From NCBI RefSeq assembly GCF_003334315.1, contig NZ_QOWR01000018.1: a stretch of DNA of 64,000 bases. One strand, 5' to 3'. The stretch's first letter is position 1, and each line of letters begins with the position of its first letter. Below, piece by piece: positions 110 to 50,676 of the stretch. Made by a program: the position numbers and the translations under genes. The notes under the pieces were generated by a model. That model saw only the letters and a list, made by a program, of their open reading frames with translations. It was not told the DNA's origin and searched no databases. Origin of the DNA: Escherichia coli. Its GTDB lineage: Bacteria > Pseudomonadota > Gammaproteobacteria > Enterobacterales > Enterobacteriaceae.

Positions 110-1308
<1,199 letters not shown>

Positions 1309-3839: not shown

Positions 3840-4558
3840 CGCAGATGACGACCGCCATCAAGTGGGAAACTGCGTCCGGTGACAAAGCAACTGGTAAGTA
3901 AGTAATCGACCAGGTCGATCACTTCTTTCTCGCCAGGCGCGGTTTTCATCAGTGATTTATTCAGCGCCTGTTGTCGATATTCGGCATCATCATGTTCATT
4001 AAACAGGATCAGCGATGGCGCAATAGAATTCACTTTCACTTCCGGTGCCAGCTTGCGGGCAAACGAGCGGGTCATATTATCCAGTGCCGCTTTGCTTGCA
4101 GCATACGCAATATGTTTGTCGCTACCGCGCTCCACCACATAATCGGTAAAGTGAATGATATCGCTGGCGGCGTGTCCGTGCCCACGCAGTAATCTTTCCA
4201 GCGCATGGTTGAGCAGGTATGGGGTATTAACGTGGATCTGCATCATGCAAGCCAGTACGTCGGCCAGTGGCGCACCCGGTTTTTCCGCCATCCACGCACT
4301 GGCGTTATGCAAAATAGCACGCAGACCATGGGTGCTTTTTAGTACTTCATCGGCAAACGCCATCACACCGTCGTTGGTCGAAAAATCAGCCTGAATACAC
4401 TGCGCACCTGCATTAATCAGTCCATCAATGGCTGGATAGTGTGTCCGATAGCTGACAATCACCGGTTGCTTTTGATTAATGAAATGCCATGCGAGGGCGA
4501 GGCCGATGCGACGACCTCCGCCAGTAATTAATATTGGCAAGGGCTGGGTTTTACCCAT
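3836..4558 (-). CDS. folM: dihydromonapterin/dihydrofolate reductase FolM (short-chain dehydrogenase)
   Basis: 240 aa, N-terminal TGGGRRIG Rossmann motif; synteny. Confidence 0.9.
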   Translation of the reverse strand: MGKTQPLPILITGGGRRIGLALAWHFINQKQPVIVSYRTHYPAIDGLINAGAQCIQADFSTNDGVMAFADEVLKSTHGLRAILHNASAWMAEKPGAPLADVLACMMQIHVNTPYLLNHALERLLRGHGHAASDIIHFTDYVVERGSDKHIAYAASKAALDNMTRSFARKLAPEVKVNSIAPSLILFNEHDDAEYRQQALNKSLMKTAPGEKEVIDLVDYLLTSCFVTGRSFPLDGGRHLR

Positions 4559-46491: not shown

Positions 46492-47451
46492 ATGATAAAA
46501 AAACCTGTGATTGGGATCAGCGGTTGTTTGGGCGGTTCTGCTGTTCGTTTTGATGGTGGTCACAAAAGAGATGACTTTTTAATGGACAAATTAGTGGAAT
46601 GGGTAACATTCAGACCAGTATGTCCGGAAATGGCTATAGGGCTGCCAGTTCCGCGTCCTGCTCTACGACTTGTGCGCTCGAAGCAAGGAAATATACGGAT
46701 GTGTTTCAGCCACGACCAGAATGAGGATGTGACAGAGAGAATGACAGAGTTTAGTCGTTCTTATATGGACAAATTAAAGGATGTATCGGGGTTTGTGGTT
46801 TGTGCTAAATCTCCCAGCTGTGGCATGGAGCGCGTGCGTGTCTATGATGAAAATGGTAATCGAGGTCGTAAAGATGGAGTGGGACTATTTACGAGCACTT
46901 TGATGGAAAAGTTTTCCTGGCTACCGGTTGAAGAGGATGGGCGATTACATGATCCAGTGCTTCGTGAGAATTTTATTGAAAGAGTTTTTGCTTTGCATGA
47001 GCTCAATCACCTTTACAAGGAGAAATTATCAAGAAGAGAGTTATTAGCTTTTCATAGTCGTTATAAGCTTCAGTTGTTGGCGCATAGCCAGGCAGGCTAT
47101 AAAGATATGGGACCATTTGTGGCTGCAATACACGAGTGGGCGGACCTTGAATCATACTTTGAGGTGTATCGTGATAATCTGATGGCGATTCTCAGAAAAC
47201 CAGCATCACGTAAAAATCACACGAATGTGCTGATGCATATACAGGGGTATTTTAGTAATTACTTAAGTACACGCCAGCGTAAAGAGTTGAGCGAGGTTAT
47301 ACTTAACTATCGCTTTGGCACATTGCCTCTTCTTGCGCCGTTGACTCTGCTGAAGCATTATCTGGGTGAGTATCCTAATGATTACTTGCTTACACAGAAT
47401 TACTTCGATCCCTATCCGGAAGAACTGGCTCTAAGACTGATGGTGAATTAA
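46492..47451 (+). CDS. DUF523/DUF1722-family protein (YbgA/TudS-like, 319 aa)
   Basis: N-terminal IGISGCLGGSAVRFDGGHKRD ... VCPEMAIGLPVPRPALRLV typical of DUF523 as recalled; AGGGGGAGGA RBS. Confidence 0.55.
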   Translation: MIKKPVIGISGCLGGSAVRFDGGHKRDDFLMDKLVEWVTFRPVCPEMAIGLPVPRPALRLVRSKQGNIRMCFSHDQNEDVTERMTEFSRSYMDKLKDVSGFVVCAKSPSCGMERVRVYDENGNRGRKDGVGLFTSTLMEKFSWLPVEEDGRLHDPVLRENFIERVFALHELNHLYKEKLSRRELLAFHSRYKLQLLAHSQAGYKDMGPFVAAIHEWADLESYFEVYRDNLMAILRKPASRKNHTNVLMHIQGYFSNYLSTRQRKELSEVILNYRFGTLPLLAPLTLLKHYLGEYPNDYLLTQNYFDPYPEELALRLMVN

Positions 47452-47848: not shown

Positions 47849-48571
47849 GTGGATAATATGCCATACATATGTTCTATCATTTTGGTGTTGAACTCGTTTG
47901 GTGTCCGAATTGGTAAAGAAGATATTTTGTTTAAAAAAGGAAATGCTGTCCTCATTGAATACAATTTAAAAGATCTTTTTTCGTCAAATACAGATCATCT
48001 AATGATCGTAGATGTTGAGGAGAAAACAGTTAATGATTTCTTTAAAAACTACACACTCTCACCTTTTTCTGTAAGAAGGTTTTATCCGTCATACTTGATA
48101 GTAGAATGTGAAGATTTTTCATTGTTAAAGAACTTGGTTGCATGCTTGAATTGTGATAGCAAAACCGTGGATGTAGTTAGAAATCAAATATCACTTGCAT
48201 GTCTTGCTGTCTTATCTTCAGAGAAAATAGTGCAAAGTTTTTTGTTCGGAAGTCTTAATAGCTTAGGTTGTAAAGTTAAGGCTATTATTCACTCGGATAT
48301 CTCAGCGTCATGGAGACTTTGTGATATATCTTCAAGATTATATATGAGCGAGAGTTTGTTAAAAAGAAAATTAAAAGACGAAGGATTATCGTTTAGTAAA
48401 TTAATTCTTGAAGAACGAATGATGATGGCGCAAAGATTATTGATCTACAGTAACCATACTGTCGGCAAGGTGGCGGGAATATGCGGGTATGACAATGCAT
48501 CATATTTTGTAAGTGTTTTTAGAAGATATTTTGGTGTGCCTCCGCACCAATATTTATCAAGATTTTCTTAG
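47849..48571 (+). CDS. AraC-family transcriptional regulator (240 aa), AT-rich gene
   Basis: C-terminal AraC HTH signature (...GICGYDNASYFVSVFRRYFGVPPHQY). Confidence 0.75.
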   Translation: MDNMPYICSIILVLNSFGVRIGKEDILFKKGNAVLIEYNLKDLFSSNTDHLMIVDVEEKTVNDFFKNYTLSPFSVRRFYPSYLIVECEDFSLLKNLVACLNCDSKTVDVVRNQISLACLAVLSSEKIVQSFLFGSLNSLGCKVKAIIHSDISASWRLCDISSRLYMSESLLKRKLKDEGLSFSKLILEERMMMAQRLLIYSNHTVGKVAGICGYDNASYFVSVFRRYFGVPPHQYLSRFS

Positions 48572-48761
48572 AAGATATGATGTGATGGCATTTTATAAAG
48601 TTATTTTTTGAAGTGTAAGATTATACGATATTTTTAGCTACGCCAGAATAATTGCTGGCGTTTTTCTTTTTGAATAGATGTTCGGGCCTTACGCTAATGT
48701 AACTTCTTTCCTTCTTCGAACCAAACCGTGTACACCATCCGTTATCTGCGGAGGTGAGGCT

Positions 48762-48977
48762 ATGAAATCCATGGATAAGTTAACAACGGGCATCGCCTAC
48801 AGCACCTCTGCAGGCAGTGCTGGCTACTGGTTTTTACAGTTGCTCGATAAAGTCACACCCTCACAGTGGGCGGCAATAGGTGTATTGGGTAGTCTGGTAT
48901 TTGGCATGCTGACGTATCTGACAAACCTTTATTTCAAGATTAAAGAAGACAGGCGTAAGGCTGCGAGAGGAGAGTAA
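48762..48977 (+). CDS. phage holin (EssD/EssQ-like class II, 71 aa, possible dual start MKSM)
   Basis: [71 protein letters not shown]; GGAGGTGAGG RBS. Confidence 0.85.
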
Positions 48978-48981
48978 GACA

Positions 48982-49200
48982 ATGACTAAAAACTATGAAC
49001 TGATTGTGAAAGGGACCCGCAATTTTGAGAATAAAGTTACGGTAATCTTAACGTTACAGGACAAAGAACGTTTTGCCGGTGAAATTTTTGATCTGAACAT
49101 CAACCTTGAGCGACTTGAAGGAGCTGGTTTGGATTATTATGAAGTTACTGCGGTAAAACATGCCAAACAGTTCTTGAGAGATTTGGCTGAAAAAATATAA
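48982..49200 (+). CDS. hypothetical protein (72 aa) inserted between holin and endolysin
   Basis: ATG with AGAGGAGAG RBS, 4 nt after the holin stop. Confidence 0.5.
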   Translation: MTKNYELIVKGTRNFENKVTVILTLQDKERFAGEIFDLNINLERLEGAGLDYYEVTAVKHAKQFLRDLAEKI

Positions 49201-49224
49201 AGCGGCATTACTGCCGCTTAGAAA
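49201..49224. terminator. bidirectional hairpin between convergent small genes
   Basis: AGCGGCA-tta-CTGCCGCT stem-loop. Confidence 0.45.
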
Positions 49225-49521
49225 TTATTCAATGTCTGGTAGCTTATCAAAGATTTCGGATACTCTTATATTTGTCATATAAGCAAATTGAGATTCTGCC
49301 AGCTCTTTGGGTGATTTTCCCGCTTTTTCTGAGCCAAAAATTGTTTCTAAAGCCAGCATGTTATATTTGAGAACCTCTTCTCGAGTTTTACCTGATAATT
49401 TTGCGGTAACAGCAATATAAAAAGGCAACACTTTATCCAGAAGGTCGTTGTGTTTTGTCAGTTGTGGTAATACCACATCAAGTTGCTTACTGATTGGTTT
49501 GAATGGATCTATACCGTTCAT
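49225..49521 (-). CDS. hypothetical protein (98 aa), opposite strand within the lysis cassette
   Basis: ORF convergent with the 72 aa gene; no recognizable family. Confidence 0.5.
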   Translation of the reverse strand: MNGIDPFKPISKQLDVVLPQLTKHNDLLDKVLPFYIAVTAKLSGKTREEVLKYNMLALETIFGSEKAGKSPKELAESQFAYMTNIRVSEIFDKLPDIE

Positions 49522-49648
49522 AGTTACATTCCCTTATCAGAGGTAATCAGCCATCCCCCCTTTATTACACACGCCAGTATCCACCACTGACGGGCTGAGT
49601 GCTTAACATATCTAGAGATTAGAAACTGATAAATCCTGATAAATATCC

Positions 49649-50676
<1,028 letters not shown>

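Follow-up and report, generated by a model that had tools for sequence, protein, structure and literature searches.

Convergent moron and reverse moron genes in the lysis cassette of a Qin-like Escherichia coli prophage, and a conserved leader element ahead of the reverse gene

Results

A convergent gene pair lies between the holin and endolysin genes

We analyzed a stretch of 64,000 nucleotides from Escherichia coli (contig NZ_QOWR01000018.1 of assembly GCF_003334315.1; hereafter, the window), in which the lysis cassette of a Qin-like lambdoid prophage carries two small convergent genes between its holin and endolysin genes. The S21/EssD-type (pin)holin gene (48762-48977, plus strand; 71 amino acids (aa) counted from MKSMDK) matches phrog_9876 (E = 2e-37) and phrog_20, is named essD by PGAP in identical loci and ends with a TAA at 48975-48977. 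Four nucleotides (nt) past this stop, at 48982, is the ATG of a 72-aa gene on the late-operon strand (48982-49200, plus strand; stop codon 49198-49200), with a Shine-Dalgarno AGGAG at 48968-48972, 9 nt upstream. The second gene encodes 98 aa and lies antisense to the late operon (49521-49225, minus strand), behind a Shine-Dalgarno AAGGGA at 49535-49530. It is preceded by a structured 5' leader (49522-49598, minus strand), defined by alignments and covariation, and by a putative promoter region (49599-49650, minus strand), marked by a conserved TAnnnT, which abuts the start codon of the SAR-type endolysin gene on the opposite strand. This gene encodes an rrrQ-like lysozyme (49649-50182, plus strand; phrog_7, E = 7e-61; rrrQ in PGAP). 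The anatomy bears out an earlier, sequence-only reading of the window, which had reported a 72-aa gene with a strong ribosome-binding site (RBS) 4 nt past the holin stop and a 98-aa gene on the opposite strand.

The two genes are separated by the hairpin AAGCGGCATTACTGCCGCTT (49200-49219), which has an 8-bp G+C-rich stem, a folding energy of -12.8 kcal/mol and a z-score of -3.7 against shuffled sequences. A terminator scan called this hairpin for the minus strand only. Its tail, TATATTTTTT, is a U-tract (about 49190-49199) that is the complement of the last codons of the 72-aa gene. Since the U-run exists on the minus strand only, the hairpin is the terminator of the 98-aa gene; a hairpin does lie between the genes, as had been claimed, but it is not a symmetric element that both of them share. 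The hairpin sequence is also kept in a Cronobacter prophage locus (L004).

The surrounding 2-kb lysis region is 100% identical in about 50 complete E. coli genomes, in a Qin-like prophage adjoining rspAB, and PGAP annotates both small open reading frames (ORFs) in these identical loci. The G+C content of the interval is 36-38%, compared with 45-53% in the holin and endolysin genes, and is low as in morons. Both ORFs are real genes, as their purifying selection, PGAP calls and conserved length demonstrate. Thus, the proposal that they occupy a phage cargo position was correct: both are genuine accessory genes of low G+C content, and the 98-aa gene is mobile and prophage-borne.

The late-strand gene is a short form of DUF1327/YdfR

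The 72-aa protein belongs to Pfam family DUF1327 (PF07041, E = 2.4e-26), with query residues 1-72 matching positions 1-72 of the 93-position model. PGAP labels the identical protein DUF1327, and residues 1-70 match five PHROG families. The ratio of nonsynonymous to synonymous substitution rates (dN/dS) was 0.16-0.46, indicating purifying selection. The protein aligns with residues 1-72 of K-12 YdfR at about 58% identity and ends at residue 72, so that the helical C-terminal extension of YdfR (residues 73-103, 31 residues) is absent and only the N-terminal domain remains. Short DUF1327 forms of 71-73 aa are the rule beside members of the 98-aa gene family.

In the K-12 Qin prophage, ydfR sits between essQ and rrrQ; it and the 72-aa gene of the window therefore occupy the same late-strand slot, after an S21-type holin and before a lysozyme. 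DNA of the N-terminal part of DUF1327 was present in 3643 of 5426 complete E. coli genomes (67%), and about 98% of these occurrences lacked the 98-aa gene. The earlier expectation that holin and endolysin should be adjacent consequently does not hold here, where an intervening gene is the norm. Likewise, the locus had been described as two inserted genes of unknown function. This remains apt for the 98-aa gene, which is cargo of unknown function, but not for the 72-aa gene, which is the usual occupant of its slot.

The biochemistry of YdfR has been addressed in a 2026 study (PMC13232886), in which the 1-72 fragment was recovered in a two-hybrid screen and bound, in two-hybrid assays, the N-terminal catalytic half of RNase E as well as RNase G. 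Full-length YdfR co-purified with Rne 1-598 and with RNA, and its overexpression had small effects on the transcriptome, with few transcripts changed and no growth arrest reported (PMC13232886). A genetic screen cited in the same work ties ydfR to envelope integrity (PMC13232886). By homology to this fragment, the window protein probably binds the RNase E catalytic half or RNA. The window thus holds a natural 72-aa version of the RNase E-binding fragment, which supports the N-terminal domain as the functional unit of DUF1327.

A small protein of similar appearance was seen in another prophage locus (L021, 5029-5241, minus strand), where a 70-aa phrog_2891 product with a DUF1327-like look (beta strands and a C-terminal helix) is encoded between the tape-measure gene and gpM. 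Its link to the DUF1327 partners is weak (E = 0.03), and small morons of this shape are found repeatedly on the late strand with no reverse gene beside them.

The reverse gene belongs to a rare and mobile family

Searches of Pfam, NCBIfam, PADLOC and PDB sequences gave no match for the 98-aa protein, and its only PHROG match was phrog_25324, which has no assigned function. Its homologs form 16 clusters of 59-99% identity and conserved length, found in Escherichia, Cronobacter, Serratia, Buttiauxella, Pantoea, Xenorhabdus, Yersinia and Providencia. Against the Cronobacter homolog, dN/dS was 0.08 at dS = 0.92; against more distant homologs, dS was saturated or above 1.7, with dN of 0.1-0.36. The gene is carried by 62 of the 5426 complete E. 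coli genomes (1.1%). Other collections yielded 17 IMG/VR loci, 4 loci among about 100,000 species-representative genomes and a single isolated phage, Evi (LR597642), which has the same arrangement. Thus, the survey of related prophages that had been suggested gave a split answer, with DUF1327 common in the slot and the 98-aa gene rare.

Neither protein contains a hydrophobic stretch or membrane segment (GRAVY -0.2 and -0.34), and the 98-aa product is predicted to be cytoplasmic. All PHROG matches of both proteins were to families of unknown function, and NCBIfam returned no match to either. These results agree with the earlier statement that neither protein resembles an antiholin, a spanin or a lysis regulator. 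The PADLOC-DB v2 defence hidden Markov models gave no match to either protein at E values up to 1, and no toxin, antitoxin or defence homology of either was found in PADLOC, Pfam or NCBIfam.

We modelled the 98-aa protein with AlphaFold2 from a 22-sequence alignment and obtained four helices (pLDDT 89, pTM 0.70); a single-sequence run gave a pLDDT of 53 and was unusable. A profile search with the family against 1.84 billion representatives returned 6 matches only. In hhalign, the protein matched HK97 gp23 with a probability of 83% (E = 9e-6, 17% identity over 70 columns), and it is a probable distant homolog of that protein. Foldseek paired the model with a 76-aa protein of Enterobacter hormaechei (TM-score 0.74 on the target), which may be a member of the gp23 cluster, as this cluster includes Enterobacter proteins of 75-76 aa. 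Of the checks proposed with the sequence-only reading, homology search placed the 72-aa protein in DUF1327, and structure prediction and remote homology gave, for the 98-aa protein, a four-helix model and a probable distant match. One of the 6 matches of the profile search was a eukaryote-like repeat protein of 1077 aa (P0020), which matched the profile four times through its DLPAYLAVSSNTSG repeat (E = 6e-5), probably owing to composition or coincidence.

In every readable locus the 98-aa family is antisense to a lambdoid late operon, and it occupies five or more slots in Enterobacterales prophages. It lies between holin and endolysin in the window and in phage Evi, after Rz in Cronobacter (L004/L005) and upstream of the holin in Xenorhabdus, Buttiauxella and Pantoea-type loci. 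The tail operon provides two more positions, one between the tape-measure protein or gpM and gpL (M-L) and one between gpI and gpJ (I-J). The stop codon of the reverse gene usually lies 2-29 nt from the end of a small late-strand gene. This partner is either a short DUF1327 of 71-73 aa or a member of an unrelated family of 93-99 aa, homologous to HK97 gp22 (hhalign probability 96%). Homology between the two partner types was unsupported in hhalign (probability 6%), and the phylogeny of the 98-aa family does not predict partner type. One locus (L037, reverse gene at 162-464, plus strand) is the sole member without a small convergent partner; there, tail gene I ends 50 nt from the stop.

The lysis cassette is locally mosaic. 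A unit of about 610 bp (48990-49598), which spans the leader, the 98-aa gene, the terminator and the DUF1327 gene, has 79% DNA identity in blastn to the Cronobacter locus L004, where it sits at a different site, after Rz. Compared by blastn with K-12 Qin (NC_000913), the window differs only at 49143-49638, which replaces 137 bp corresponding to the 3' third of ydfR; homology is 84% up to 49142 and 93% from 49639. The 84% DNA identity to ydfR covers the first 54 or so codons, and the last 18 or so codons of the DUF1327 gene are part of the mobile unit, together with the reverse gene. From 10 nt before its start codon onward, rrrQ shares 93% DNA identity with K-12 Qin.

A conserved leader with a putative promoter precedes the reverse gene

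The roughly 80 nt before the start codon of the 98-aa gene form a leader whose DNA is conserved even where synonymous sites are saturated. Three helices can be drawn in it. In P1, UCAGCC (49598-49593) pairs with GGCUGA (49552-49547). P2 is an enclosed 8-bp hairpin (49592-49585 with 49579-49572). In P3, AGGGG (49561-49557) pairs with CCUCU (49543-49539) in the window, the family form being AGAGG/CCUCU. As GGCUGA sits in the P3 loop, P1 and P3 together would form a pseudoknot. The leader also contains GAUUACCUCU, with the family form GAU(U/C)ACCUC, which resembles the 3' end of 16S rRNA; the Shine-Dalgarno sequence follows 3-6 nt beyond.

We assessed these helices in an alignment of 15 protein-anchored loci (A3) and in one of 95 distinct leaders (A8). 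The latter came from scanning IMG/VR with a strict DNA pattern derived from the leader, which found at least 120 contigs, with 91-95 distinct leaders among the matches listed, depending on the flanks included. P2 showed compensatory changes in 6 of 8 pairs in A3; in A8 it was 97.8% paired and again 6 of 8 pairs covaried, and pairing ranged from 94 to 98% across alignments. Many of the G-U pairs in P2 would be A-C mismatches on the other strand, which argues that the structure belongs to the cargo-sense RNA. P1 was nearly invariant; the variants recovered by targeted scans were one compensatory (TCAACC/GGTTGA), one with a G-U pair and one with a mismatch. P3 was only about 80% paired. An exact 18-mer of the leader occurred once in the window, against an expectation of 0.03.

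Upstream of the leader lie TATGTT (49610-49605), which resembles a -10 element, and, further out, the conserved box TATCAGG (49641-49635). Among the 95 leaders, the corresponding TAnnnT hexamer lies about 6 nt upstream of TCAGCCC, with T1 and T6 invariant and A2 conserved in at least 90%. From this conservation, we infer that the 98-aa gene has its own promoter with TATGTT as its -10 element. The -35 at the expected site is poor, and a sigma-70 consensus scan at 9 of 12 matches accordingly called no promoter there. The box itself, ACTG-N-TATCAGG, contains an imperfect palindrome (CTG-N9-CAG) and spans about -50 to -36 of the putative promoter (A8 columns 16-32; about 49635-49650 in the window). 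Many copies also have an inverted repeat with covarying arms, CAGGGT...ACCCTG or CAGGATGT...ACATCCCTG, between the TATCAGG box and the -10.

Rfam covariance models had no overlapping match to the leader at E values up to 10, either in the window or in a canonical copy. Two likenesses noted by eye, to preQ1-I (AGAGG...CCUCU...AUAAGG) and to ZTP (ACUGGCG), were dropped for want of a covariance-model match. A mini-ORF in the leader (AUG GCU GAU UAC CUC UGA, MADYL) was rejected as coding, since its stop codon shifts and its AUG is lost in two loci (L011 and L037). LexA boxes have the spacing CTG-N10-CAG; the upstream CTG-N9-CAG box differs in spacing and was set aside as one. The stretch AGAGGGAUGG resembles a CsrA site.

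The same leader precedes many unrelated small genes

The leader precedes at least 85 distinct proteins of at least 20 BLAST families in at least 116 viral cassettes (IMG/VR loci L040-L159). Among the matches listed, the cargo is mostly 65-100 aa and of unknown function, and every cassette has a good Shine-Dalgarno sequence, with an ORF at a constant spacing from the leader. Where large ORFs lie on both sides, the cargo is antisense to both neighbors in 72 of 83 cassettes. A convergent small late-strand ORF ends within 60 nt of the cargo in 80 of the 116 and is missing in 36. Each cargo family is paired with several partner clusters or with none. Cargo and partner thus recombine freely, which makes a cognate toxin-antitoxin (TA)-like pair unlikely.

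Recognizable cargos were a DUF1883 protein and a 268-aa DUF6602/PD-(D/E)xK protein. The latter (L099, leader at 3910-3970) matches Pfam DUF6602 and the PADLOC PD-(D/E)xK and NucC nuclease models (E = 3e-26 and 1e-13), and it carries the only defence-like signature among the cargos listed. In many of the convergent late-strand ORFs (for example in L049, L052, L058, L070, L074, L083, L085 and L120), both the DNA upstream and a MTLEQRVEALEK-type N-terminus are conserved, whereas the C-terminus is hypervariable and runs 4-41 nt into the 3' end of the reverse gene. The combination of conserved flanks and a variable center in these ORFs suggests cassette exchange by recombination.

The leader element was also found in 26 phage records, among them HK97 gp23 (L161), HK022 gp23 (L160) and ES18 gp25 (L162). 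The HK97 record calls gp23 a "reverse moron product", convergent with the "moron" gp22 between tail genes I and J, and the HK022 record calls gp23 "srb protein; moron gene product". In the ES18 record, gp25 is a "possible moron" convergent with gp24 (DUF1327) between M and L, with putative terminators annotated. The moron and reverse moron annotation of HK97 and HK022 reportedly goes back to the genome paper of Juhala et al. 2000. We searched the literature on DUF1327, "reverse moron", HK022 srb and HK97 gp23 and found no functional study; in databases, the 98-aa, gp22-type and gp23-type proteins are all named "hypothetical".

In the gp22/gp23 loci of HK97 and HK022, as in the window, a small late-strand gene converges with a small reverse gene ending at a terminator of its own, and the upstream elements are alike (ACTG..TATCAGG box, TAnnnT, TCAGCCC, P2 hairpin, GGCTGA, CCTC and Shine-Dalgarno). 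The window differs in that the pair lies in a lysis cassette instead of a tail operon, that the partner is DUF1327 instead of a gp22-like gene, and that the genes do not overlap. ES18 comes closer as regards the partner, since gp24 is a late-strand gene of the DUF1327 family that converges on a leader-bearing reverse gene, with a terminator between the two; however, gp25 belongs to another cargo family (95 aa, common in Salmonella), gp24 has 86 aa and the slot is in the tail operon. A late-strand terminator flanks the promoter in HK97, HK022 and ES18 but is missing in the window.

The neighborhood of the cassette

Rz and Rz1 follow rrrQ. Within Rz (50179-50676), an out-of-frame ORF (50372-50626, plus strand) encodes 84 aa with the lipobox LIVLTSC and matches rzoQ/Rz1, and the spanin pair thus appears intact. 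Just 5' of the holin gene, in the position of a tR'-type terminator, is a strong terminator-like hairpin with a U-run (48640-48661, plus strand).

A Q antiterminator gene was not seen upstream of the lysis cassette in this prophage. Directly upstream of the cassette lies a gene of the YbgA family (DUF1722, 2-thiouracil-desulfurase-like; 46492-47451, plus strand), along with one encoding an AraC-type helix-turn-helix protein (47849-48571, plus strand), the two being flanked by IS1. A metagenomic prophage (L011) has a YbgA-like gene between Q and the cassette; given its presence in both, this gene looks like a recurrent cargo of the post-Q site. In the window, the Q region has apparently been replaced by the YbgA and AraC-type genes and insertion sequence (IS) elements, and late expression of DUF1327 may therefore be lost.

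Discussion

The locus is, in its gene content, an ordinary one: a moron and a reverse moron of the kind annotated since the genomes of HK97, HK022 and ES18. The explanation that we favor, with confidence only slightly above even, is that the two genes are independent accessory units that have come to lie tail to tail in a Qin-like lambdoid lysis cassette, as moron and reverse moron do in those phages. The DUF1327 gene would have no promoter of its own and would be translated from the late polycistronic mRNA. This reliance on late mRNA would mean that DUF1327 is made only in lytic growth. The 98-aa gene would be transcribed in the opposite direction from its own promoter and would end at the hairpin terminator. 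At the 5' end of its mRNA, the P1/P2 stem would be followed by a helix pairing a Shine-Dalgarno mimic with an anti-Shine-Dalgarno mimic, just 5' of the real RBS, and this leader may set the stability and translation of the mRNA. We hypothesize that the reverse gene is on as long as late transcription is off, as in the lysogen and perhaps also just after DNA entry. Antiterminated late transcription through the gene would then shut it off by convergent interference and antisense pairing. The 98-aa protein may be one allele of a hypervariable cargo slot.

Comparison with known systems gives this arrangement a wider context. A moron is a unit with a promoter and a terminator of its own that is expressed from the prophage, and one of them, HK97 gp15, mediates superinfection exclusion (PMC3594210). 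The 98-aa gene resembles HK97 gp15, lambda bor and lom, cor and P22 sieA in being late-region cargo of low G+C content with its own expression signals, and this analogy leads us to expect that the prophage expresses it. In contrast to those membrane or envelope proteins, which have demonstrated roles in exclusion or virulence, the 98-aa protein is predicted to be cytoplasmic. It would most likely act as a small protein-binding factor in phage-phage or phage-host conflict, and by analogy with other morons (PMC3594210; PMC7067206) a role in defence, exclusion or anti-defence is plausible.

A second comparison concerns the regulatory element. Anti-CRISPR loci, with their aca genes, and the PeSL cassettes of T4-type phages place a conserved regulatory anchor beside hypervariable small ORFs. 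As in these systems, the conserved flanks of the window element could drive cassette exchange by recombination. The anchor is of a different kind: a promoter and a structured leader RNA in temperate lambdoid phages, as opposed to a regulator gene (aca) or an early-promoter stem-loop (PeSL). More tentatively, and as a proposal that we think has a smaller chance of being right than of being wrong, the leader and promoter may constitute an undescribed class of cis-regulatory RNA. It would mark a hypervariable reverse-moron slot in lambdoid phages of Enterobacterales and would turn on the diverse small conflict proteins encoded there during lysogeny or early infection, turning them off again late in the lytic cycle.

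Several observations weigh against the explanation by independent units and their reciprocal expression. P1 is nearly invariant, and P3 is incompletely paired. The poor -35 and the failed sigma-70 calls mean that the promoter is placed from the conservation of TAnnnT only, and the inverted repeat CAGGGT...ACCCTG could be an operator, a transcribed structure or a sign that transcription starts further upstream. With the apparent lack of a Q gene, late transcription of DUF1327 may not occur in this prophage. Finally, the recurrence of convergent ORFs in the listed cassettes, together with that of the combination of a gp22-like with a gp23-like gene, makes a functional link between the two genes possible.

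Such a link is the core of the alternative that survives best, to which we give a small chance. Here the two genes would form a cognate module, in which the 98-aa protein is a defence or toxic effector expressed from the prophage and the late partner (DUF1327, or a gp22-like protein elsewhere) is an antidote or self-immunity factor that frees the lytic cycle of the phage itself. The convergent ORF is found not only in the 80 cassettes but also in all but one of the readable 98-aa-family loci, the 610-bp unit moved between E. coli and Cronobacter with both genes, and homologs of HK97 gp22 and gp23 recur together. Reciprocal expression, in the lysogen and late, would also suit an effector and its self-immunity. 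However, at least two unrelated partner families serve the 98-aa family without following its phylogeny, L037 has no partner at all, the cargo families listed likewise change or lack partners, and DUF1327 occurs overwhelmingly without the 98-aa gene. Moreover, overexpression of ydfR caused no reported growth arrest (PMC13232886), and neither protein has similarity to toxins, antitoxins or defence proteins in Pfam, NCBIfam or PADLOC. The sequence-only reading had taken the convergent pair for a typical footprint of a toxin-antitoxin or a superinfection-exclusion/defence module. Its toxin-antitoxin version fails on the unstable pairing, the absence of such homology in these databases and the lack of a common operon: type II TA systems are bicistronic, and here the genes are convergent, separate transcription units with a terminator between them.

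Another explanation, which we regard as unlikely, is that the function lies in the RNA. The minus-strand transcript would act as an antisense RNA on the late mRNA of the resident phage or of a related, superinfecting one, and the leader would itself be the functional RNA. The antisense orientation of nearly all listed cassettes is consistent with this, as are the 3' ends that often overlap the convergent ORF by 4-41 nt and a leader conservation that exceeds that of the coding sequences. There is also a precedent in STnc6030 of the Salmonella prophage BTP1, an antisense RNA in late genes that mediates exclusion (PMC7067206). Against this stand the strong purifying selection on the 98-aa protein (dN/dS = 0.08), whose length and start are conserved, and the good Shine-Dalgarno sequence and ORF that follow the leader at a fixed distance in every listed cassette. 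In the window, moreover, the transcript would cover no more than about 10 nt of the DUF1327 gene.

We judge it just as improbable that the genes tune lysis. In that case, DUF1327, and perhaps the 98-aa protein, would set the timing or stoichiometry of the pinholin and the SAR endolysin through RNase E processing of the lysis mRNA or antisense cleavage between the holin and endolysin genes. DUF1327 is indeed typical of the holin-endolysin slot in S21-type cassettes, and YdfR binds RNase E and possibly RNA and is connected with envelope integrity by the cited screen (PMC13232886). Nevertheless, the short DUF1327 forms and the 98-aa family also occur in tail operons, far from lysis genes, both proteins lack membrane segments and similarity to antiholins, spanins or lysis regulators, and ydfR overexpression altered few transcripts (PMC13232886). 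That one or both ORFs are spurious, a doubt raised by the sequence-only reading and prompted by their small size and the lack of a Pfam or NCBIfam family for the 98-aa ORF, is refuted by the conservation data: dN/dS values well below 1, a length conserved across genera, a conserved Shine-Dalgarno sequence, PGAP calls and a confident AlphaFold2 model.

The explanation by two independent units therefore remains the one that we prefer, and the more valuable result lies to the side of it. This is the leader element, which has real covariation, has no match in Rfam and stands ahead of genes for small proteins from at least 20 unrelated families, nearly all of them antisense within late operons. Were the leader to prove a true regulatory RNA, it would provide a testable model of how prophage cargo is expressed reciprocally to the late genes, and a sequence anchor with which to catalog hypervariable small phage proteins, one of them a NucC-like nuclease. 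Should it also represent the RNA class proposed above, this anchor would serve for mining small defence and anti-defence proteins, the 98-aa family included.

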